Shown here: piece by piece, positions 1 to 9,320 of the stretch
Position numbering within the stretch: the stretch's first letter is position 1
How the letters are laid out: every line of letters starts with the position of its first letter
IMG/VR virus record: IMGVR_UViG_2651869781_000010
Reading direction: 5' to 3' (one strand)
Origin: a virus
Lineage: Duplodnaviria > Heunggongvirae > Uroviricota > Caudoviricetes
Length of the DNA stretch: 9,320 bases
Notes under the pieces: model-generated
The model's database searches: none
What the model saw: only the letters and a program-made list of their open reading frames with translations
What the model was told of the DNA's origin: nothing
Translations under genes and position numbers: made by a program

Positions 1-774
1 TATGTCAAAATTATCAAAATCGAAAGAATTGATTTTCTCATTAAATTCATCAAATTCCGCTTGTTTGATGCTTAATAAATCAGTTAACACCTCTTCTTCA
101 TCACCAACAAAGTTACCTACCTTTTCAATTAACTCTGATAACTTTTGTTTGTTTTTTTCTATTTCGTCACTAAGCTCATAATTACGAATTAAATTAGCAC
201 TATCAAACCCAAGCAGGTGACCTATGTATGGTTTCCAAAAAATGTGTTTTCCAATAAAATCTTTTAATCTAAATACATCAGTATAATCATCTTGCCCACG
301 CAGTGAATAGCCTAAGGCAGTCCGATAATCCCAACGCTTAATTACACTTAAATCAAAAAGTGCATCCAAACACTCTTTCGACCTCTCAAAGGGTAGCTCT
401 GGATAGTCCCATTCACTAACTGCTAAATCAGTAAAGTCTTGATGCTTCTGCTCATGTTTTATAATACTTATTTTTGTAGGTGAGGCAACTGAGCGACGAA
501 TCGTTACATAACCCCCTGAGTTAAGAGCCACTTCTAGATAAAAAACAAAACTCTCAAAAACATTAAAATTTTTAAATAAAAAATGATTTTTATTTTTTTT
601 CTTAAGTAAACAAAAATCTATTAGATCACATAATTTACTTTTCCCTAAATTATGCGTATCTTTGCCTCTATTCTCAGAACGTCTTATTTCACCGATAACT
701 ACATTAAGCCCATCATGAAACTTTATAGGACTAAAAACATCTTTTTTATTAGAGTAAATTTTTGATAGTTTCAT
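1..774 (-). CDS. ABC/SMC-type ATPase, N-terminal 258 codons only (gene continues past window start); candidate ATPase subunit of a Lamassu/ABC-3C-like system
   Basis: Hand translation of the minus strand from ATG at 774..772 gives MKLSKIYSNKKDVFSPIKFHDGLNVVIGEIRRSENRGKDTHNLGKSKLCDLIDFCLL..., which resembles the N-terminus of OLD/ABC-family ATPases (LNVxIGE ... GKS ... LIDF). The frame stays open to position 1. The ATG overlaps the TGA of the upstream 79-aa ORF (ATGA). The P-loop is non-canonical, with about 11 extra residues between GE and GKS. This ORF is absent from the supplied track because it is truncated. Confidence 0.55.
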   Translation of the reverse strand, partial: MKLSKIYSNKKDVFSPIKFHDGLNVVIGEIRRSENRGKDTHNLGKSKLCDLIDFCLLKKKNKNHFLFKNFNVFESFVFYLEVALNSGGYVTIRRSVASPTKISIIKHEQKHQDFTDLAVSEWDYPELPFERSKECLDALFDLSVIKRWDYRTALGYSLRGQDDYTDVFRLKDFIGKHIFWKPYIGHLLGFDSANLIRNYELSDEIEKNKQKLSELIEKVGNFVGDEEEVLTDLLSIKQAEFDEFNEKINSFDFDNFDI

Positions 775-1010
775 TTTTTAACCCACTCAATCAAATCATT
801 TTTAGAATGATATTCGATCAGACCTAATAAATATAACAAACCTAGTGCGGGGTTGAATAAGGAAATAGCTCGCTCATCATATTTCTCAAGTGCATCATAA
901 AGCTCAGCATATTTACCAAATTTAGCTTTGCGTAGCTTTTTCATTAAGAATGCAGCTACCGCCAAGACGGTCAAATCTGGATGTGAATTCTTATTAGGAA
1001 GCAAGCTCAC
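771..1010 (-). CDS. small (79 aa) helical protein, candidate middle component (LmuC/ABC-3C MC-like) of the three-gene system
   Basis: ORF from the track with GTG start at 1010..1008, preceded by AGGAG (complement of 1016-1020) at about 6 nt. It overlaps the upstream gene by 17 nt and the downstream ATPase by 4 nt (ATGA), indicating translational coupling. No recognisable catalytic motif. The functional label rests on size and position only. Confidence 0.55.
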   Translation of the reverse strand: MSLLPNKNSHPDLTVLAVAAFLMKKLRKAKFGKYAELYDALEKYDERAISLFNPALGLLYLLGLIEYHSKNDLIEWVKK

Positions 1011-1941
1011 AGCTATCTCCTATATCACAATTATAATACATATAGTAAACCATTATTCTTGTTAATTTTTTATTTTTGTGCAGATCTGAATCCCTTGCAA
1101 TCAGTAGTTCAATCATCACCTCGAGAATTCGATCAAAATCATGATAATCCTTTTTATAAACACATATTTTAGCTGCAAGCTCATCTGCGCTTTCAATATA
1201 TTTTTTTTGATATGCGCTATTATCAGGATGAGATAAAAAATCCGAAATTTCAGTAATCTCAGCGATTTTTTTCTTAATAAGCTCAGCGTAACTGTTGCTT
1301 AAGTTATTTATTTTATTTTTCTGTAGAAAATCCACTCTAAAAATATGTGATGAAATAGTCTTATCTGTTAATTTACCAAGAGATGTATTTATACCTATAA
1401 TAACTTCTGCCAGTTGTTCTGGATCGATATTAATAAGCACATCGAATGGGTTAAGACCGGCCATTTCAGGCACATGTGGAAATACCTTAAAGTACCTCTC
1501 CATAGTTTCTATCCCAATCAACCCTATGTTGAATTTATCTAACCCGGTTTGGGTACTTATAAAATCCAGAATGTTTTTATTTGCCTCAGCAGGTAGTCGT
1601 CTATTGGCAAACAACAAATAATTATTAATTTTATCTTCATCAATTAATTTTTGTATTTTTGGTAATTCTACATTCAAAACTGAGGTTGTATTACCAAAGA
1701 AATCAGCATCAGAAAATTTTCTGTTATGATTTATAGTATGCTTAGCCTGTATTATGGTTAAACCATCCCATGGCCTGGCTTTACTAGGGTATGCTTCAGC
1801 TACACCATCGAATCTTGAGTCACGTCCCCCATCCCGCCCATCAGCAAAGGATTGAGTTCCTATGCCTAAAAGATCATAGCAAAGGTAAACAACTAGGGTT
1901 TCAAATTGAAATGCCGATAAACTGCAGTAGTCATATTTCAT
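994..1941 (-). CDS. 315-aa protein with N-terminal Mrr-like PD-(D/E)xK nuclease motif plus a C-terminal helical domain of about 200 aa; candidate effector (LmuA-like)
   Basis: ATG at 1941..1939. The N-terminal segment ...SFADGRDGGRDSRFDG...(about 20 aa)...LTIIQAKH carries a DGGxD ... QxK pattern typical of the Mrr catalytic/restriction-endonuclease fold. It is the first gene of three overlapping genes. AT-rich codon usage matches the two downstream genes. Confidence 0.65.
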   Translation of the reverse strand: MKYDYCSLSAFQFETLVVYLCYDLLGIGTQSFADGRDGGRDSRFDGVAEAYPSKARPWDGLTIIQAKHTINHNRKFSDADFFGNTTSVLNVELPKIQKLIDEDKINNYLLFANRRLPAEANKNILDFISTQTGLDKFNIGLIGIETMERYFKVFPHVPEMAGLNPFDVLINIDPEQLAEVIIGINTSLGKLTDKTISSHIFRVDFLQKNKINNLSNSYAELIKKKIAEITEISDFLSHPDNSAYQKKYIESADELAAKICVYKKDYHDFDRILEVMIELLIARDSDLHKNKKLTRIMVYYMYYNCDIGDSCELAS

Positions 1942-1992
1942 GACTGTACCTTATTAAAAGTCAGCAGAATTGGAAAAAACATTAAGTTTGAA

Positions 1993-2022
1993 ATCATATA
2001 ATTGCCACTGAAATAATTTCAA
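1993..2022 (-). promoter_or_regulatory. candidate sigma70 promoter for the cargo operon
   Basis: On the minus strand: TTGAAA (2022..2017), a 16-18 nt spacer, then TATATG/TATGAT (2000..1993), about 55 nt upstream of the ATG at 1941. Found by eye in AT-rich DNA, so a chance match is plausible. Confidence 0.3.
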
Positions 2023-2300
2023 CAATCAACTTAATACTCAAAAATTTCAATGTGTTACTTTACCGCACAATGACGCAATAAACTCTGCAAAAAATCTATA
2101 AACGCATTTTTTTTGACAACTCGCACAGCCCCGCACGCCTGCCCGCTTCGCTTAACAGACTGGTTTTCATGCACCTCATAAATCGTCTCAGAAGCCACCA
2201 CACAAGGGCTTTCTCGTCAAAAATGGTGCATAAGGCTCATGCGTTTTCATGCGCCATAGACATGCACTCATGCGCTCTCAGGCCAGCCAGGGAAAAGGTG

Positions 2301-2328
2301 TTAAAAATCCCGGTACTTGACCGGGATT
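2301..2328 (-). terminator. Rho-independent terminator candidate downstream of the ogr gene
   Basis: Perfect 9-bp inverted repeat AATCCCGGT (2306-2314) / ACCGGGATT (2320-2328) with a 5-nt loop. On the minus strand the stem is followed by TTTAA, giving an AUUUUUAA run. It lies about 20 nt after the ogr stop at 2349. Confidence 0.45.
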
Positions 2329-2348
2329 ACGTGGGCATTTTTTTCTAA

Positions 2349-2621
2349 TCAGACAGGAATCTGCTGACGGCTTGACAGTTTTGACGCGGAGCCATAGCGA
2401 TTGAGCGTTTGCTGTTGTTTTACCGGGGCTTGTGATTTGTCTGGTTCCTGTTCATTGCGCCGGGGTTTCATGATTATCTTATCCACACTCTCCAGTGCCG
2501 TAAATGTGCAGGAACATTCCAGATTCTGGCACTGATACCACGAGCGTTTAACTGACGGAGCTTCATAGGCTGCTGTTCTGGCGTGTGCAACTGTACCGCA
2601 TTCCGGACATTTAAGTGCCAT
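2349..2621 (-). CDS. ogr: Ogr/Delta-family zinc-finger late-gene transcriptional activator (90 aa from the ATG)
   Basis: MALKCPECGTVAHARTAAYEAPSVKRSWYQCQNLECSCTFTALESV... carries the exact C-x2-C-x22-C-x4-C spacing and the AHxRT / YxQCxN / TFxxxESV motifs of P2 Ogr and P4 Delta. The track ORF begins at a GTG at 2630; the ATG at 2621..2619 with AGGAG 8 nt upstream is preferred. Single-domain, not duplicated as in P4 Delta. Confidence 0.85.
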   Translation of the reverse strand: MALKCPECGTVAHARTAAYEAPSVKRSWYQCQNLECSCTFTALESVDKIIMKPRRNEQEPDKSQAPVKQQQTLNRYGSASKLSSRQQIPV

Positions 2622-2626
2622 TAATA

Positions 2627-3178
2627 TCACTCCTGTATATCGTTAATGTCATTCAGGCGTTGCTGAAAACGCAGATGTTGTGCCGGGGTGTAAGAGCCCT
2701 GGCAATCACGAATCATCCCGGGGTCTGGCATCAAACCGGATTCATCCAGGATCTCACGATAATCCCCGGCAATTTCAGGCGGTGTTATTGCCAGCTGGCG
2801 AACCAGAGCACTGCGTAATATACGGGACGCAACGTCAACCCCTCCGCGCCCCTTCAGGAACGGAGCCAGTGCAGATGTCAGGGCTGCCCCATTCGCCTGC
2901 ATAAAATTGCTGAGAGCAGCTTCTGTGCAGGCCTCCATCAATAAATGCTGCGAGTAAATGCATTCGCGAGCAGCACAGTTAATTTGCCATTTCAGCACAT
3001 CCAGACGTTCCCGCAGTAATTCGAGCTGTCGGGCATAATCTGTTGGTTTTTCTGTGGCAGCGAGGAGAGATGCTATCTGTTGTTCAACGGCTTTTCGGGT
3101 CTCACTATGTCCGGCCCACAGAATACGGGCATTCCGAAAACTGGTAAGTGCCTGGTCAGGTGTGCCTCGGGCCGTCAT
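2627..3178 (-). CDS. psu: Psu-like protein (polarity suppression / capsid decoration), 183 aa
   Basis: All-helical 183-aa protein. Segments KWQINCAARECI, FMQANGAALTSALAPFL and YTPAQHLRF resemble P4 Psu as I remember it (KWQVNQAAGRYI, FMQQHGTALAAALAPEL, FTPAQNMIF). Length is close to P4 Psu (190 aa). The ATG overlaps the stop of the upstream gene (ATGA). The comparison is from memory, not from an alignment. Confidence 0.55.
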   Translation of the reverse strand: MTARGTPDQALTSFRNARILWAGHSETRKAVEQQIASLLAATEKPTDYARQLELLRERLDVLKWQINCAARECIYSQHLLMEACTEAALSNFMQANGAALTSALAPFLKGRGGVDVASRILRSALVRQLAITPPEIAGDYREILDESGLMPDPGMIRDCQGSYTPAQHLRFQQRLNDINDIQE

Positions 3179-3918
3179 ACAGCTTTCTCCTTCTCAGCAA
3201 GTTCCTGACGAACCTTTATTTTATGCATAGCTGCCGGAGAGAGTTGATTACTGAAATCCAGACGCGCCGCATAATCCGGGGCAACTCCCGCCAGTTTAAA
3301 CACCGGGTCCTGTTCAGGCATCGCATCGTTAGCCAGAGCCGGTCTGGTGATATGTTTATGAATAAAGTCTTTCAGCACTGTGTCCGGGTCATTAACTGAA
3401 TTCACCACACCCACAACGGCACTGGCTTCCCGGCCCATTGTGGATTTAAGCAGGCTCAGCGTCTGAATAAGCGCTTTTCCATGCGACTGCATAAAATCTT
3501 CCCAGATTTGTTTTGCGCGAATATCCACAAGAATGTTATGCGCGTGGATATACTTTCCGGCTAATTCCGCAGCTTTCTGCGGCAAAAGTGCATTTTCGCT
3601 TTCCTGAGCCGCCAGCAGCTCATCAAAATCCTCAAGCGTTTCTCGTCCCAGCGCAATTTCCGTGCGCAGTTTTTTCATTTCCTTTGAGACCACGCCCTGA
3701 CTTTCACGAAACAGCGTGCGCCACTCCTCATTCAGTGTGTTCGTCGTGGCTTCCATTTCAGCGCGACGCTGGCGGATTGTCGCAATATTATCCGCTGCAG
3801 CTTTCTGCTGACGACGTGCTTCAAGCCATGCGTTTCTGGCTGTGTTCATGGTTTCCAGTGCCCGCTGCGTTACAGCCGGAAAAGTGGAAAGGTTGTTATT
3901 CACTGCGGTGTTGTTCAT
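3175..3918 (-). CDS. 247-aa coiled-coil protein, putative Sid-like capsid size-determination scaffold (assigned by size and position only)
   Basis: ATG at 3918..3916 with AGGAG 6 nt upstream. Helical, charged, Ala/Glu/Arg-rich sequence. It is the first gene of the late operon directly behind the Ogr-type promoter, and P4 Sid is 244 aa. No sequence motif was recognised. Confidence 0.4.
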   Translation of the reverse strand: MNNTAVNNNLSTFPAVTQRALETMNTARNAWLEARRQQKAAADNIATIRQRRAEMEATTNTLNEEWRTLFRESQGVVSKEMKKLRTEIALGRETLEDFDELLAAQESENALLPQKAAELAGKYIHAHNILVDIRAKQIWEDFMQSHGKALIQTLSLLKSTMGREASAVVGVVNSVNDPDTVLKDFIHKHITRPALANDAMPEQDPVFKLAGVAPDYAARLDFSNQLSPAAMHKIKVRQELAEKEKAV

Positions 3919-3952
3919 GACTTCTCCTGTCGGGTTGGTTCGTTACGTCAAT

Positions 3953-4008
3953 TGTGTCGTGGCTGACACAAGCACACTATCGGTGCTCAGTGTGTGGTGG
4001 CTGGCACA
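3953..4008 (-). promoter_or_regulatory. late promoter with two Ogr/Delta-type TGT-N12-ACA dyads (Psid-like)
   Basis: TGTGTCGTGGCTGACACA (3953-3970) and TGTGTGGTGGCTGGCACA (3991-4008) are near-identical, with centres 38 bp apart, and lie 35-90 bp upstream of the ATG at 3918. P2/P4 late promoters use a TGT-N12-ACA activator site centred near -55, and P4 late promoters have a second promoter-proximal site. Confidence 0.6.
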
Positions 4009-4096
4009 ACGGACGCTTGCGGTTATTCAGACGTGGCTATGAAAGCCAGCCAGATAAAAATACCCTCTGTTTCAGTCTGCTTTATGTCCCTGATGC

Positions 4097-4292
4097 GGTG
4101 GAACAGGTGAAACATGTGTTACTGCTTTGTTTTATAAAGCATTTATATACACTGCACCGGTGGAACATCGCGGGTAACAAGGTGGAACAGCGGATTGGCT
4201 GGCGTTACATCTGTTCCACCTCACTATTTCAGAAGGTGGAACAGGTTCAGCCCTGTAAAATACGGTTGTTCCACCTGTTTCACCTGTTACCC
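4097..4292. repeat. iteron cluster, candidate ori/crr-like replication element bound by the primase
   Basis: GGTGGAACA at 4097-4105, 4159-4167, 4181-4189 and 4235-4243. Variant GGTGAAACA at 4106-4114. Inverse copies TGTTCCACC at 4212-4220 and 4267-4275, and TGTTTCACC at 4276-4284. Close to the P4 alpha-binding octamer TGTTCACC. Located in the 400-bp non-coding gap immediately 3' of the primase gene. Confidence 0.7.
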
Positions 4293-4318
4293 TTAATAAA
4301 TAAGACTCACGCAAAGCC

Positions 4319-6991
4319 TTAACCCGGCACCTCGCTGTTGAAGACATAGAGCCTGCGGGGATTCATCTCTGGCGGGCGAATGGTTGTCTGGAGTTTGCCA
4401 TCAGTGGAGGGCAGCAGGTATCCACGATCTACGCACAGACGCGCCACCTTGCGCGGGTCAAATCCCCTGCAGATTTCTTTCCAGCCGGACGGCATGACAT
4501 AGAACGTAGTGACAGCTTCCGTGCCCTGCGCGGTACTGCCTTTCTCCACCCTGCGCCAGCCCACCATATTGCCGGGGCGGTTGCGCTCGTCATACCAGTC
4601 TGCAAAGCGGCTGTACTGATTCGCGGTAAAGAAACTGCGAACCTGCTCCAGTGCGGCGATATCTTCCTGATTGGCGGTGTGCCCGCGATCTTTCAGCCAT
4701 GCGTTCAGGCAGACGCGGGTTGCCCGCAGTGCTTCACCCTCAGGCCAGCCGGTGATACCCAGACGGGTTGCCAGTTCACCTGCCATCGCCACCAGTGCAA
4801 AGCGGTTCACAGCCCGGCCCACCTGATTGCCTGCATCTTTAGGAGTCAGGGCGGCAGCATATTCCTTCATCAGCGATTTTGCCTGTGCCGTTAGTCCGTT
4901 AAGATCAGCGGTCAGTGCTTTCAGCCACTCCCGGAACGGCGAACCGTAGTAGCAGGACGTGGCCCATTCAAGATGCTCTGCCAGAGCCTTGCCGCTGTCG
5001 AAGCCGTGCAGCTCCTCAAAAACGCCAAACTTCCCGGAATCGCTTGGGATCTGGATCATCCTGACTTCCATCCCGGCAAAAGTACGCTCACCGGCCTTTG
5101 CCGCATGTTCGGTCAGAGACAACTCGCCAGTTGAAAAGAACAACAGGCGCCACTGCTTACGGGTACGCAGCTCACCGTCCGTACCGGCACGGCCCTTGCC
5201 CTGACCGTTTGCCAGCATGTAGGCGATATTGCCTGCCTCGCGTCCGTCAACTTCCCGGATCTCATCAAGCATCATGGCGGCATCGTTGCGGCGGCTGGCG
5301 CATCCCTCCAGCGCGTTGCCGGTGGCCCGCCATGTCTGCCAGTAGTCAGGCCCGCCGCAGACGGAGGTTGCCGCTTTCATGGTGGTGGTCTTACCGTCTG
5401 TCGATTCCCCTTTTAGGTGGTAGCCGCCGCCGTCCATACCAACCAGCCGTAACAGTGGTGCAGCAAAGGCCAGGCTGACAGCAAATGCCACGCGGGAGTT
5501 GCCGGTACAGTAGCGGGATACATGCTCCCGCCATTCCTCTGTTGTGCCCGACACGCGGAAATCACGCCCCTGCACGGAAGTGGTCTGGAGAATGACACCC
5601 TCTGCACCTTCACCGCTGACCTCATCCTGCAGGACGTAAACCTGACCATGCCAGCCAGTACGACTGACGCAGGTCACGCGGCGTTCCGGTTTACACAGTG
5701 AGATATATTCCATCAGGCGTGCGCGTGCCTCACCGGTGGTGCTGATATAAGACAGCCCGTTAACCAGCAGTACCCGGCGCAGTTCCTCACCACTGCCGCT
5801 CAGCATTTCCATCGGCATCGCCCAGCGGCGACACTCACCCCACGTATCTTCCCATTCCAGCAGTCGTCCGAAGTTACCGCCATCGGCATCGCAGGTGATT
5901 GCCGTCACGCGCAGCGGGCTGCATATTTTGACGTTCTGGATCTCCGTCTCACCGTTGCGCTGTACCTGCTTTTCATACCAGAGATATTCCTGGGTAAGAC
6001 GGAACCCGTGCGGCAGTTGCGTGCGGCCTTCCCCGCACAGTACCAGACCGTTGCGAAAGGCTTCACGGGCACGGGTAATACCGTGCTCCCGATGAAAGTC
6101 ATTCCAGTCAGCCTTAATCTCTCCTGGTGGCAGGGTCATCCAGCCGCCAACAGCTTTTGCCGCCCGTTCAGCAAAGGCTCTGCCGGGATTCTCACCCCCG
6201 TCCTGAAAATCGTTATCACCGGCGATGATAATTTTTACCTCAGGCCAGCGTGCCCGCAGCGACTGCGCCACATTGGGCAGGTTGCCCGCAGATATGGCAG
6301 CCACTACGCATCCGGCAGTGAGCTGGCTTACCGTCAGCGCCGTAGCGTAACCTTCGGTAATCACCACCTGTACCGGTGGTTCAGACGGTAACGGGCTGAG
6401 CGACACAAACGCGCCTTTCATCGTGCTGCCGGGCAGTATGCTTTTTTCACCCGTCGGGGCGATAAGCTGTGCACCGGTCACGGCTCCGGTGTTGGTCGTG
6501 AGTGGTAACAGCAGGGAACCGGTAGGAAAATCCTTACCGCTGATATGCTGCACGCTTCCGGTCAGAGAGGCCGGGTATCCGGCGAACCCTTTTCCTGTCA
6601 GATAGGCGCTTTCTCCCGTGTGGCTCTCTTTCATCAGCGCCGCCACGGTAAGACCCATGTCGCGTTTAGGGGCTTTTTGTCTGGCAGGCTTAACAGGCAG
6701 TTCCTGCACATCCGGCACATTAAGCACCTGCGCCACCTCCTGCGCAGCCTTTCTGACGCTGTAACCGGTTACGAGCTTAACCAGATCCAGACCGTCACCA
6801 TTGCCACACTGGCTGCAGATCCACGTCCCGCGCCCGTCAAGGTCATCAAGGCGAAAACGATCCTTGCCCCCACATTTCGGGCAGGGACCGTGCCTGCCGT
6901 TTTCAGGTACATCAATACGCAGCATCTGCAGAATAACGGGCCATTTCCCCCGTGCGGCGGCTGAAATCTGCGTAACCGTCTGTATTGTCAT
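4319..6991 (-). CDS. P4 alpha-like primase/helicase (N-terminal zinc ribbon, TOPRIM primase domain, SF3/D5-type P-loop NTPase), 890 aa
   Basis: CPKCGG...CSQCG zinc ribbon near the N-terminus. VVITEGYATALT and IIAGDNDFQDGGENPG are TOPRIM acidic motifs. Walker A GESTDGKTT lies mid-protein. The ATG at 6991 overlaps the upstream stop (ATGA) and has a GAGGGGG Shine-Dalgarno sequence. The iterons lie just downstream. Confidence 0.9.
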   Translation of the reverse strand: MTIQTVTQISAAARGKWPVILQMLRIDVPENGRHGPCPKCGGKDRFRLDDLDGRGTWICSQCGNGDGLDLVKLVTGYSVRKAAQEVAQVLNVPDVQELPVKPARQKAPKRDMGLTVAALMKESHTGESAYLTGKGFAGYPASLTGSVQHISGKDFPTGSLLLPLTTNTGAVTGAQLIAPTGEKSILPGSTMKGAFVSLSPLPSEPPVQVVITEGYATALTVSQLTAGCVVAAISAGNLPNVAQSLRARWPEVKIIIAGDNDFQDGGENPGRAFAERAAKAVGGWMTLPPGEIKADWNDFHREHGITRAREAFRNGLVLCGEGRTQLPHGFRLTQEYLWYEKQVQRNGETEIQNVKICSPLRVTAITCDADGGNFGRLLEWEDTWGECRRWAMPMEMLSGSGEELRRVLLVNGLSYISTTGEARARLMEYISLCKPERRVTCVSRTGWHGQVYVLQDEVSGEGAEGVILQTTSVQGRDFRVSGTTEEWREHVSRYCTGNSRVAFAVSLAFAAPLLRLVGMDGGGYHLKGESTDGKTTTMKAATSVCGGPDYWQTWRATGNALEGCASRRNDAAMMLDEIREVDGREAGNIAYMLANGQGKGRAGTDGELRTRKQWRLLFFSTGELSLTEHAAKAGERTFAGMEVRMIQIPSDSGKFGVFEELHGFDSGKALAEHLEWATSCYYGSPFREWLKALTADLNGLTAQAKSLMKEYAAALTPKDAGNQVGRAVNRFALVAMAGELATRLGITGWPEGEALRATRVCLNAWLKDRGHTANQEDIAALEQVRSFFTANQYSRFADWYDERNRPGNMVGWRRVEKGSTAQGTEAVTTFYVMPSGWKEICRGFDPRKVARLCVDRGYLLPSTDGKLQTTIRPPEMNPRRLYVFNSEVPG

Positions 6992-7371
6992 ACTTCCCCC
7001 TCATACAACGTCACACCGGTACTGCAGAAGTCATCAAAGGCCGCCGGAAGCGTGCGGTACATCTCCGCCATCACTTCACAGCCGCGCGCGGTCAGTACCG
7101 GCGGCGCGGTCAGCAGTGATGGCTCCAGCATGTCAGTCAGCAGTGCCAGCGCGGCAGCGGCGCCCTGCACTTCGCCGTACTCGTTAATCAGTACGCACTC
7201 GATATGCAGCGCAATGGCCATTTCAATACGCTCCACCGTCAGGCTGTGCGGACCATACTGATCACTGCCAGTTTCGTTCAGCATTTTCTGCCGCCATGCT
7301 GAAGCAATAGCCCGCCGGTAAAGCGCGGTGGTCATTTCTACCGGGAAAATGGAAACCTGCGGCTGGTTCAT
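6988..7371 (-). CDS. hypothetical protein (127 aa), primase-operon gene
   Basis: ORF with ATG at 7371..7369, AAGGAGG upstream, and 4-nt ATGA overlaps with both neighbours. GC-rich codon usage matches the primase. No motif recognised. Confidence 0.6.
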   Translation of the reverse strand: MNQPQVSIFPVEMTTALYRRAIASAWRQKMLNETGSDQYGPHSLTVERIEMAIALHIECVLINEYGEVQGAAAALALLTDMLEPSLLTAPPVLTARGCEVMAEMYRTLPAAFDDFCSTGVTLYEGEV

Positions 7372-7652
7372 CTGGCACCTCCTTCAATCAGTGCGCAGCT
7401 GTGTGCAATATCCGTCAAATCTGCCAGCAGGTACTCCATCAGCGCGGCGACACCATGCGCACAGCCAGCGTCCAGTGCTCCGGCCTGAGACGGGTATTCA
7501 GAAAAGAGAAGCTGGAGCATGTCGCAGGCATTTTTTGCGCGGGTCAGCTTTCCGAAACTGTCCTCTGACAACCCATAGGCAAAAGCACCGGTATTGTGTT
7601 TTTCAGGCAAAGTGTGGCCCTGAGCACCGTTGTGCCCGTTTGAAATATTCAT
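7368..7652 (-). CDS. hypothetical protein (94 aa), primase-operon gene (position and size reminiscent of P4 epsilon, unverified)
   Basis: ATG at 7652..7650 with GGAG 9 nt upstream. The stop overlaps the next ATG. No motif recognised. Confidence 0.55.
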   Translation of the reverse strand: MNISNGHNGAQGHTLPEKHNTGAFAYGLSEDSFGKLTRAKNACDMLQLLFSEYPSQAGALDAGCAHGVAALMEYLLADLTDIAHSCALIEGGAR

Positions 7653-7683
7653 CGTGGATTACTCCGTTTTCAGCGGTATTTTG

Positions 7684-8043
7684 TCAGAGAAACTTTGAAT
7701 AGTGACCGTCGTCAGGCTCAGCAGAACGCCATATGCTACGCTCCCGCCAGCGGATAAATAGCACAGACGGATGCAGTGTCAGCGGGCCGGAACCACTACC
7801 GCCTGCAGGAGCTGGTGCAGGCTTAAAGAGCGGTACATCAAACAGGCGCGTATACCGCTGTTCAAACCATGCCAGAGGGCAGGAAGAAAGCTGGTTGTCG
7901 CTGTCATGACGTATCAGCACTTCACAGCTGAATTCAGGATTAACCAGCGCCACAGAGGGCGAGGCTTTAATTAATCGGATAATCGTGACCGTCCAGCCAC
8001 GTTCATGCTGCCAGCGTTCGCCGGGTTGCGGATAATTACGCAT
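7684..8043 (-). CDS. hypothetical protein (119 aa from the ATG), primase-operon gene
   Basis: The track ORF starts at a TTG at 8073. The ATG at 8043..8041 (MRNYPQPGERW...) with GGAGG 5-6 nt upstream is preferred. Contains a Pro/Gly-rich linker (KPAPAPAGGSGSGP). Confidence 0.55.
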   Translation of the reverse strand: MRNYPQPGERWQHERGWTVTIIRLIKASPSVALVNPEFSCEVLIRHDSDNQLSSCPLAWFEQRYTRLFDVPLFKPAPAPAGGSGSGPLTLHPSVLFIRWRERSIWRSAEPDDGHYSKFL

Positions 8044-8212
8044 GTTCACCTCCGCAGGGAATGCGCCCGGCAAAGCTCAGTACATAGTCCGGGGCAAGTC
8101 TGCGCCGCGCTGATCGCTCGTTATCTGCGGTGATCCTTAACATCACCGGACGGGCATTACGTTGACTGCGGTTGATCGCCGCAAATAACCAGGTACACTT
8201 CTCTTTAGCCAT
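8036..8212 (-). CDS. small hypothetical protein (58 aa), first ORF of the primase operon
   Basis: ATG at 8212..8210 with GAGG 9 nt upstream. Translates as MAKEKCTWLFAAINRSQRNARPVMLRITADNERSARRRLAPDYVLSFAGRIPCGGEHA. Its TAA (8038..8036) overlaps the ATG of the next gene by 8 nt. It is the 3' part of the 244-aa track ORF 8036..8770, whose upstream portion looks spurious. Confidence 0.35.
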   Translation of the reverse strand: MAKEKCTWLFAAINRSQRNARPVMLRITADNERSARRRLAPDYVLSFAGRIPCGGEHA

Positions 8213-8287
8213 CTTCGTTGCCTCATATAGCGGTTTGGTCAGAAGCCCGGTTAGTGTTGCTGCACTGTCGGGCTTCGCACTCACAAG

Positions 8288-8380
8288 GTGAATCGCACCT
8301 TCACTTTTAAAGCTACCCTTAAGTGAATCGCACTTCAAGTCTTTTATTATCATTTTTTTTGCGTATACTGAATCGCACCT
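8288..8380. promoter_or_regulatory. divergent control region: three direct repeats (candidate operators) plus the -10 element of the plus-strand regulator gene
   Basis: GTGAATCGCACCT (8288-8300), GTGAATCGCACTT (8323-8335) and CTGAATCGCACCT (8368-8380). The third overlaps a TATACT -10 (8364-8369) located 30 nt upstream of the ATG at 8400, which has AAGGAG at 8386-8391. The region separates the primase operon (minus) from the RHH-like gene (plus). Confidence 0.5.
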
Positions 8381-8399
8381 AACGCAAGGAGATCCAGTA

Positions 8400-8585
8400 A
8401 TGGCAACGGGTTCAACTAACAACAAGTCGCAGCAACTTAATGCTCGTTTCCCACATGATGTAGTTGCAGAATTAGAAAGCAACCTTGAAGATGGGGAAAC
8501 GAAAGCGCAATTTATTGTTACCGCTGTAAAAGGCGAGATTAAACGCCGACAGCGCAGGAAAAATAAGCTAGAGCAAGTAAGCTGA
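8400..8585 (+). CDS. small DNA-binding regulator, probably ribbon-helix-helix type (61 aa)
   Basis: ATG at 8400 with AAGGAG 8 nt upstream. The segment QLNARFPHDVVAELESNLEDGETKAQFIVTAVKGEI has a strand-helix-helix pattern typical of Arc/CopG-like proteins, followed by a basic tail (KRRQRRKNK). A terminator follows. Confidence 0.55.
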   Translation: MATGSTNNKSQQLNARFPHDVVAELESNLEDGETKAQFIVTAVKGEIKRRQRRKNKLEQVS

Positions 8586-8648
8586 ATAGAGAAGCGAATA
8601 GACGTTCTCTCAGATTCCATGCTAATTTCAGTAAGCGACAATATTTTT

Positions 8649-8680
8649 AAGCCCACAAACTCATTTTGTCGGGCTTTTTT
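8649..8680 (+). terminator. Rho-independent terminator after the RHH-like gene
   Basis: Stem AAGCCCACA (8649-8657) / TGTcGGGCTT (8667-8676) with a one-base bulge and a 9-nt loop, followed by a T-run (8675-8680). It sits between the convergent RHH-like and AlpA-like genes. Confidence 0.5.
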
Positions 8681-8681
8681 A

Positions 8682-8912
8682 TTAGTGATTTTCATGCCGT
8701 TCACCACGAGAGGCATATATTTGCTCTTGAATCCAGTGATCGACTTCGCTTTCAACAAATGAAATTGCACGAGTTCCTATTTTCACCGGGCGGGGAAATG
8801 TATTGTTTGAAAGCTGTTTGTAAAGCCATGCCTTGCTACGCTGAACGCGTCTTAACACCTCTTTTGCTGAGATAAGGGTCTGATTCTCTGAAAGGTTGTT
8901 TGCATATTCCAT
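8682..8912 (-). CDS. alpA: AlpA/Vis-family phage transcriptional regulator / excisionase-like protein (76 aa from the ATG)
   Basis: ISAKEVLRRVQRSKAWLYKQLSNNTFPRPVKIGTRAISFVESEVDHWIQEQI matches the AlpA/Vis helix-turn-helix signature (...S.STIYR....G.FP.PIKLG.R...W...E...WI). The track ORF begins at a GTG at 8957. The ATG at 8912..8910 with GGAG 8 nt upstream is preferred. Confidence 0.8.
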   Translation of the reverse strand: MEYANNLSENQTLISAKEVLRRVQRSKAWLYKQLSNNTFPRPVKIGTRAISFVESEVDHWIQEQIYASRGERHENH

Positions 8913-9193
8913 CTTGTTACTCCGTGTTCTGCTTAAGTTCACGGTGACTTTAAACACTGAAAAAAAGTCATTCTAGTGATAATGGAATCTATTAAGACAA
9001 ACACTGATTCTATTGAAATGTGATGATTTCCACTGAAAAAAAAGAAACGATATTCATATGAAAGAACACAAGAAGAAGGAAATGCACAAATATAAAATCA
9101 ATAAAATTCATATAGATAGGATGAAAAATCAAAAAAATCATACGTCAAAAGGTATTATTACGTATTATCGATTCATATTACTCAGGAATTACC

Positions 9194-9248
9194 ACAGTAT
9201 TACACTGTATTACCCCCTATAGCCCCTTAGAGCCTCTTGTAGCCCCTT
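9194..9248. repeat. two sets of tandem decamer-scale direct repeats in the AT-rich region upstream of alpA
   Basis: ACAGTATTAC (9194-9203) directly followed by ACTGTATTAC (9204-9213). Then TAGCCCCTT (9220-9228), a degenerate copy AGAGCCTCTT (9229-9238) and TAGCCCCTT (9240-9248) with roughly 10-bp periodicity. Confidence 0.4.
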
Positions 9249-9320
9249 CTAATGAGAGATATACAGAAAGTAATTAATAAATTCACTCTCCGTATTTTAT
9301 AATGTCTTTACCCAACTTTA

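Follow-up and report, generated by a model that had tools for sequence, protein, structure and literature searches.

A compact three-gene operon in the cargo slot of a P4-like satellite is very probably a short Lamassu system

What is the AT-rich operon that closes one side of the viral record IMGVR_UViG_2651869781_000010, and what would it do for the P4-like satellite that carries it? The window, that is, the whole stretch of 9,320 nucleotides analyzed here, holds on the minus strand of positions 1-1941 three tightly packed open reading frames (ORFs), which encode proteins of 315 and 79 aa and, truncated to its first 258 aa, one of 595 aa. An earlier interpretation made from the letters only (hereafter, the sequence-only reading) took them for a candidate anti-phage system with the layout of Lamassu (DdmABC) or ABC-three component (ABC-3C) conflict systems, that is, effector, small middle protein, and SMC-like ATPase. 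Our computational follow-up makes it highly likely that the operon is a short three-component Lamassu (equivalent to ABC-3C) in the order lmuA-lmuC-lmuB, carried as exchangeable cargo by the satellite and presumably acting by the Lamassu mechanism. ABC-3C is the earlier name of type II Lamassu (10.1101/2025.06.23.660979). The operon comprises the following features.

994..1941, minus strand: LmuA-like effector, 315 aa, with an N-terminal nuclease and a C-terminal CTD12 domain
1941-1447, minus strand: predicted Mrr/FokI-like PD-(D/E)xK nuclease domain of the effector, residues ~1-165, with E14, D37-GGR-D41, and Q65-A-K67
1749-1741, minus strand: QAK motif of the effector, Q65-A66-K67, at the catalytic-motif position
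1443-1018, minus strand: CTD12 domain of the effector, residues 167-308, Pfam PF20279, E 4.6e-51
771..1010, minus strand: LmuC-like middle protein of 79 aa, starting at a GTG preceded by AGGAG at a distance of 9 nt, overlapping the effector stop by 17 nt
1..774, minus strand: LmuB-like SMC/Rad50-type ABC ATPase, first 258 of 595 aa, ATG at 772-774, the ORF running past the window edge
693-637, minus strand: Walker A segment of the ATPase, G28...G44-K45-S46, containing an 11-residue insert
Residue Q161 of the ATPase: Q-loop
1993..2022, minus strand: candidate sigma-70 promoter of the operon, TTGAAA-18-TATGAT, 10/12 consensus positions, ~50 nt upstream of the effector ATG
1942..2125, no strand assigned: AT-rich DNA leading into the cassette; the variable cargo has its left edge at ~2126

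The three components

Comparison with a 95.8%-identical allele in E. coli APEC E19025 yielded ratios of nonsynonymous to synonymous substitution (dN/dS) of 0.10 for the effector and 0.05 for both the middle protein and the ATPase; the three ORFs are therefore not chance frames and are under purifying selection. Their coordinates agree with the gene overlaps described before, with 17 nt shared by effector and middle gene (994-1010) and a 4-nt ATGA shared by middle gene and ATPase gene (771-774). The cassette is AT-rich, as had been noticed, with a GC content of 0.29-0.35 across window positions 1-2000 versus 0.50-0.62 across 2400-8000. The operon had also been credited with a candidate promoter of its own. 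Indeed, a sigma-70-like site precedes the effector gene; however, promoter-like sites in the AT-rich cassette DNA (13 observed versus 10.0 +/- 3.3 in shuffles) are not enriched above the shuffle background, and the site therefore stays a candidate.

The C-terminal half of the effector provided the clearest family assignment, as its CTD12 match reached 173.5 bits against a cutoff of 25 for the Pfam family labeled 'C-terminal domain 12 of the ABC-three component systems', which was likewise matched by 39/39 effector homologues. Across these 39 homologues D37, D41, Q65, and K67 are invariant and E14 is kept in at least 90%; Pfam Mrr_cat was matched by 31 of them, the window effector on its own giving no match. 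Single-sequence and profile searches of the PDB returned nothing for the effector and the middle protein and only coiled-coil noise for the ATPase, so that relatives of effector and ATPase in this database were missed by sequence and fold comparison was required. In Foldseek, the effector model retrieved LmuA 9nxx_D as top whole-chain match (probability 0.98), followed by B. subtilis YydB, and it also resembles Mrr/FokI-type nucleases. The modeled restriction-endonuclease fold and the D...(Q/E)xK motif are those of Mrr-like PD-(D/E)xK nucleases (Pfam PF04471). By fold, the N-terminus of the effector is hence an Mrr-like nuclease of predicted activity, in line with the original assignment of this gene and of its QAK motif, of which both Q65 and K67 are among the invariant residues.

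The 79-aa protein matched two Pfam families of middle components, MC8 (PF20295; E 1.7e-14, 54.1 bits with a cutoff of 25) and MC6 (PF20293; E 1.9e-10, 41 bits with a cutoff of 27.2), and its gene keeps its position between effector and ATPase across four genera. These matches give substance to the small middle protein of the proposed layout.

The window fragment of the ATPase is identical to residues 1-258 of a 595-aa protein on contig L002, and the full-length ATPase was recovered from other contigs carrying the identical effector. It ends in Pfam DUF2326 (E 8.6e-22) and was recognized by the PADLOC models PDC-M68B (E 1.1e-46) and LmuB (E 1.5e-13). For structural comparison we relied on an AlphaFold2 (AF2) model of a 78%-identical homologue (P0002; predicted local distance difference test score, pLDDT, 86.2), in which the N- and C-terminal head halves are separated by a helical arm at residues 192-440. 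Foldseek placed B. subtilis YydD first (2e-23) and then, interleaved with SMC and Rad50 chains, LmuB 9uxh_F (6e-13), 9hqx_B (2e-12), 9hqu_A, and 9ux7_A (8.9e-11), with more SMC, Rad50, SbcC, and JetC chains below. The modeled homologue thus confirms an ABC/SMC fold, the absence of which would have refuted the sequence-only reading, and the SMC-like ABC ATPase previously proposed from a truncated gene is supported by the full-length protein. Its motif residues K45, Q161, G496, D527, D534, and H581 are conserved, its coiled coil is short, and it is devoid of a CxxC zinc hook. The P-loop, already singled out as unusual, is VIGE-IRRSENRGKDT-HNLGKS, which contains an 11-residue insert with respect to four Lamassu-family LmuB sequences from the Millman supplement, two of them from systems that gave defense.

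Collectively, the operon has the components by which ABC-3C systems are recognized, namely a Pfam CTD12 effector domain, an MC-family middle component between effector and ATPase, and, as third gene, an ABC ATPase with a coiled-coil insert; at 595 aa, the latter also has the size of the SMC-like LmuB of short Lamassu systems (~600 aa). CTD12, MC8, and MC6 are defined for ABC-3C by the Pfam descriptions, and our statements on ABC-3C are based on these descriptions and on papers that cite the original ABC-3C work. RefSeq names the three proteins 'ABC-three component system protein', 'ABC-three component system middle component 8', and 'DUF2326 domain-containing protein'. These names evidently come from Pfam-derived models; an NCBIfam scan of the three proteins gave nothing. 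Homologues of the ATPase are named 'YydD (DUF2326 family)' by the JGI.

The cargo slot of the satellite

The satellite genes nearest to the operon, together with its backbone marker, are listed below.

2303..2328, minus strand: 9-bp GC-rich hairpin AAUCCCGGU/ACCGGGAUU plus U run, just past the Ogr/Delta stop, in both minimum-free-energy and centroid folds
2349-2630, minus strand: Ogr/Delta, end of the late operon flanking the cargo slot, Pfam Ogr_Delta 7.4e-16
2627-3178, minus strand: Psu, late operon, Pfam Psu 2.3e-44
3175-3918, minus strand: Sid-like/Psu-family gene, 247 aa, late operon, Pfam Psu 1.8e-9 (weak)
4319..6991, minus strand: P4 alpha-like primase/helicase, 890 aa, backbone marker, with Zn-ribbon, Toprim, and DUF927

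We located the cassette on contigs L002 and L003, which carry it in identical form and hold the whole satellite in the order tRNA-Leu(CAA), integrase, AlpA, Icd-like gene, DUF5375, alpha-like primase, two Psu-family genes, Ogr/Delta, and cassette. The tRNA 3' end provides attL (L002 542-563), which is repeated as attR at 13194-13214, and the flanks of the two contigs diverge exactly at 13214. The cassette spans 10001-12955 on L002 and ends 240 bp from attR; since both the att repeat and the point of divergence lie beyond it, the cassette is internal to the satellite, flanked by Ogr/Delta and attR; a location outside it had been named by the sequence-only reading as fatal to its proposal. One flank of the element matches E. 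coli ahr at 100% identity, and the exact cassette proteins are filed under E. coli at NCBI; the satellite is integrated at tRNA-Leu(CAA) (leuX) in this species. The attR of L003 (13194-13245) has four tandem CCTTCGCA copies past the tRNA-Leu core versus one in L002 (13194-13214), and the attR core is one G shorter than the tRNA 3' end (CTTCGGCACCA versus CTTCGCACCA).

Backbone DNA, counted from window position 2126 on, occurs in 859 of the 5426 complete E. coli genomes searched; the cassette occurs in only 2 of the 5426, at 95.8% identity. The closest backbone relative (97.7% identity), in E. coli 2017.15.01CC, carries a retron St85 reverse transcriptase (RT) and effector in the same slot (L016 4675-6595). 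A related satellite of E. coli O55:H7 TB182A (CP038295; L010 3200-6475) has a different ABC-3C cassette, of the MC2 type, directly past Ogr/Delta, so that two unrelated ABC-3C lineages use one and the same cargo slot. Exchangeable slots of this kind have already been described in P4-like satellites (PMC11754643; 10.64898/2026.02.27.708500), and the cassette has the attributes of such hotspot cargo, as it sits inside the element, between the late operon and the att/int end, at a place where cargo differs among relatives. This settles the predicted location in a defense slot. The further detail that the cassette directly follows the late-operon terminator is likewise supported: folding revealed the hairpin with its U run at 2328-2303, which is probably that terminator. 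A simple terminator scan of window positions 1-2700 found none.

Other traits of the element were recorded along the way. The 247-aa Psu-family gene, in tandem with Psu at 2627-3918, is annotated as 'septation initiation protein' and probably plays a Sid-like role. A non-coding stretch of ~400 bp (3919-4318) separates the primase gene from the late operon, and an AT-rich one (8958-9320, GC ~0.32) lies upstream of alpA. A 61-aa YlcI/YnfO-family gene (8400-8585, plus strand) runs opposite to all other satellite genes and is covered by a 244-aa minus-strand ORF (8036-8770) that is unannotated in related RefSeq records. A 19-nt P4 cos query had no match within 3 mismatches. Past the satellite attR in E. 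coli APEC E19025 (L001 1-10525) there are an integrase Arm-domain fragment, a type I restriction-modification remnant, a ParB/Srx-domain gene, a second integrase pseudogene, and a BREX-1 system, with several islands stacked at leuX.

Relation to described systems

An operon of these three genes, equal in gene sizes and overlaps, occurs in a V. cholerae integrative mobilizable element, in B. pseudomallei, and in P. fragi. Near-identical proteins are encoded on at least 1000 contigs of Salmonella enterica and in Klebsiella, and the lineage extends to Vibrio, Yersinia, Pseudomonas, and Burkholderia. Members of the ATPase family were found on 37 plasmids, including 22 conjugative ones, and on none of the phage records, which gave neither DNA nor protein matches to the cassette. 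In B. pseudomallei, the operon (L013 7973-9997) adjoins several helix-turn-helix regulators and a gene that combines RVT_1 and Trypsin_2 domains, in what looks like a defense-island context.

Among the solved systems, type II Lamassu (V. cholerae DdmABC, S. enterica LmuACB; 9uxh, 9hqx, 9hqu) shares with the window operon the order of effector, small middle protein, and ~600-aa SMC-like ATPase, an effector made of an N-terminal nuclease and an ABC-3C C-terminal domain, and the fold of both ATPase and effector; the ATPase also resembles VcLmuB in its deviant Walker B and lack of a zinc hook. Conversely, the nuclease is Mrr/FokI-like here and Cap4 there, CTD12 replaces CTD7, MC8 (79 aa) replaces MC3, the 11-residue Walker A insert is a trait of the window ATPase, and the sequences are too distant for a profile to find the solved chains. 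The type I system of Bacillus cellulasensis (BcLmuAB, 9ux7), whose LmuB matches the ATPase model by fold (8.9e-11), lacks an lmuC gene and has a Cap4 nuclease, unlike our operon; nonetheless, BcLmuA is reported to end in CTD12, the Pfam family to which the C-terminal domain of the window effector also belongs (10.1101/2025.06.23.660979). In B. subtilis YydD-YydB (DUF2326; integrative model 9a6c), YydD is the structure to which the ATPase model comes closest (E 2e-23, TM 0.60), at only 16% identity, and YydB matches the effector model; a literature search on YydD gave nothing relevant.

The Lamassu-Mrr system of E. coli SE15 is likewise made of three genes with an Mrr-type nuclease, and the FE...D-GRD...Q-KH motifs of the two effectors align. 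It differs in an LmuA of 379 aa (versus 315 aa here) with another C-terminal domain, in a 168-aa winged helix-turn-helix LmuC (versus 79 aa), and in a 620-aa LmuB whose P-loop is the canonical GESDTGKS and which has a CxxC zinc hook, two traits that the window ATPase lacks. The SE15 system is validated, acts by abortive infection, and requires all three genes (10.1101/2022.05.11.491447). We rejected membership of our operon in this same lineage, as only Mrr motifs and ATPase head align, and weakly. We also rejected identity with 'Lamassu-var' of CP038295, which has other components (MC2, a 205-aa ABC-3C protein, and a 394-aa hypothetical protein) and no DNA similarity to the window cassette; it is nevertheless also an ABC-3C cassette directly past Ogr/Delta, and its late operon is annotated alike (Psu, septation-initiation-protein, Ogr-Delta). 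This variant was tested in the Domainator paper and resulted in smaller plaques with T-even phages (PMC11754643). As for the PADLOC candidate PDC-M68, itself a prediction, PDC-M68B spans the ATPase end to end (3-589 versus 2-576 of 581), whereas the match of PDC-M68A to the effector is weak (E 0.025) and confined to 50 residues, which indicates a different effector partner.

Several of these results weigh against the assignment to Lamassu. The best PADLOC model for the ATPase is that of the candidate system PDC-M68 and not Lamassu, PADLOC has no LmuA model match for the effector and no LmuC model match for the middle protein, and the latter, at 79 aa, is about half as long as LmuC in the tested Mrr systems (164-168 aa). 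Alignment to the SE15 proteins with hhalign was restricted to the N-terminal head for LmuB (E 8e-4) and to the Mrr motifs for LmuA (E 0.08), and the ATPase-family profile found no PDB chain at E <= 1. The nucleotide-binding motifs depart from the patterns reported for short LmuB (PMC12663957). Instead of the Walker A prototype Gx4GK[S/T], the ATPase reads D39-THNL-G44-K45-S46; in the alignment, the canonical first G is represented by G28, which lies 11 residues farther away, and the GK[S/T] core is intact. Residues D39, H41, and N42 in the insert region are invariant in 46 sequences, down to 39% identity. Walker B is FIYH-D527-G528, at odds with hhhhD[Q/S/T/E]; its Gly is invariant in the same number of sequences, the D-loop Asp stands at +7, and an invariant E531 lies at +4 from the Walker B Asp. 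LmuB proteins typically have a deviant Walker B and still hydrolyze ATP (10.1101/2025.06.23.660979). Given that both Walker motifs are altered, the ATP cycle of this ATPase may therefore differ from that of other LmuB proteins. Finally, a literature search retrieved no experimental report on the CTD12/MC8/DUF2326 subtype.

The assignment thus concerns a divergent, compact member rather than a textbook Lamassu, a caveat foreseen from the letters and matched by the Walker A insert, the Asp-Gly Walker B, and the 79-aa middle protein; the layout itself is sustained by the CTD12, MC8/MC6, and LmuB matches. PADLOC recognizes this lineage of Mrr nuclease-CTD12, MC8, and DUF2326 ATPase through its ATPase. 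Because the LmuA and LmuC models are silent and the best ATPase model is that of a candidate system, automated tools of this type may fail to call the cassette a complete Lamassu.

Proposed mechanism and competing explanations

In the solved Lamassu complexes, two LmuB copies and LmuC sequester the oligomerization domain of a single LmuA, until DNA ends or phage replication origins trigger its release, whereupon it assembles into a tetramer whose nuclease site is active, and the cell dies (10.1101/2025.03.14.643221; PMC12663957; 10.1101/2025.06.23.660979). By analogy, we infer that two ATPase copies and the 79-aa middle protein would bind the CTD12 domain and hold the effector as an inactive monomer. 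An encounter of the ATPase heads with free DNA ends or phage replication intermediates would release the effector, which would oligomerize via its C-terminal domain, bring Mrr/FokI-like domains together, and cut DNA indiscriminately. The infected cell would then stop or die (abortive infection), protecting the host and satellite kin from phages and possibly plasmids. FokI dimerizes to cleave, so an Mrr/FokI-like domain plausibly fits activation by oligomerization. Complex formation, trigger, nuclease activity, and protective phenotype are all transferred from the solved systems to the window operon by this analogy.

A variant of this scheme that we put forward tentatively, and regard as rather unlikely, is that the DUF2326/YydD-like branch runs an ATP cycle unlike that of solved Lamassu, as a minimal Lamassu whose trigger threshold is set by nucleotide binding or by a relocated catalytic base and not by canonical hydrolysis. 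It is suggested by the invariant Walker A loop, the Asp-Gly Walker B, the invariant Glu at +4, and the 79-aa middle protein. The P-loop insert might, in addition, contact the effector or DNA.

The chief targets of this machine could instead be plasmids or competing mobile elements, as with DdmABC in V. cholerae, so that it would serve in satellite competition. DdmABC, or type II Lamassu, is reported to eliminate plasmids as well as phages (10.1101/2022.05.11.491447; 10.1101/2025.03.14.643221), and the plasmids and the V. cholerae element that carry this ATPase family, next to its absence from phage records, would suit such a role. This activity is, however, compatible with phage defense, the slot in related satellites holds anti-phage systems such as the retron, and the P4 hotspot cargo tested to date protects against phages (10.64898/2026.02.27.708500; PMC11754643); we therefore consider a chiefly anti-plasmid function improbable. 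Far less credible is an addiction or stabilization module, in which ATPase and middle protein would restrain a nuclease toxin and satellite loss would kill the cell with no invader sensing. The effector of solved Lamassu is indeed a sequestered toxic nuclease (10.1101/2025.03.14.643221), and the cassette sits at the very end of the element, close to attR; but three co-transcribed genes with overlapping frames offer no obvious differential decay, an SMC-like ATPase of 595 aa that conserves its ATP and Q-loop motifs far exceeds the needs of an antitoxin, and the same operon is found in chromosomal defense-island contexts.

The resemblance of the ATPase model to Rad50, SMC, and SbcC heads, after YydD and LmuB, and the view that Lamassu derives from SbcCD (PMC12663957) could also speak for a housekeeping complex of the Rad50/SbcC type, engaged in DNA repair or chromosome maintenance and uninvolved in conflict. 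We give this explanation hardly any credence, as the operon is patchy in its occurrence (the 2/5426 complete E. coli genomes mentioned above), resides in AT-rich foreign DNA in a swappable slot of a mobile satellite, lacks an Mre11/SbcD-like phosphoesterase partner, and has instead CTD12 and MC8 partners, domains whose Pfam definitions are limited to ABC-3C conflict systems. Likewise, the computational analysis revealed no match of the cassette to a well-characterized non-defense function.

A short Lamassu thus very probably accounts for this operon. Systems of this kind are already named and catalogued, and the placement of the cassette in a P4-like hotspot is also a known pattern. The operon therefore opens no new category and adds one more documented P4-like satellite with a complete system of the putative abortive-infection type in its swappable slot. 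A phenotype for this lineage would show the Lamassu mechanism at work in the most compact of its three-gene forms, and would reveal any effect of the P-loop insert and the Asp-Gly Walker B on the firing of the sensor.

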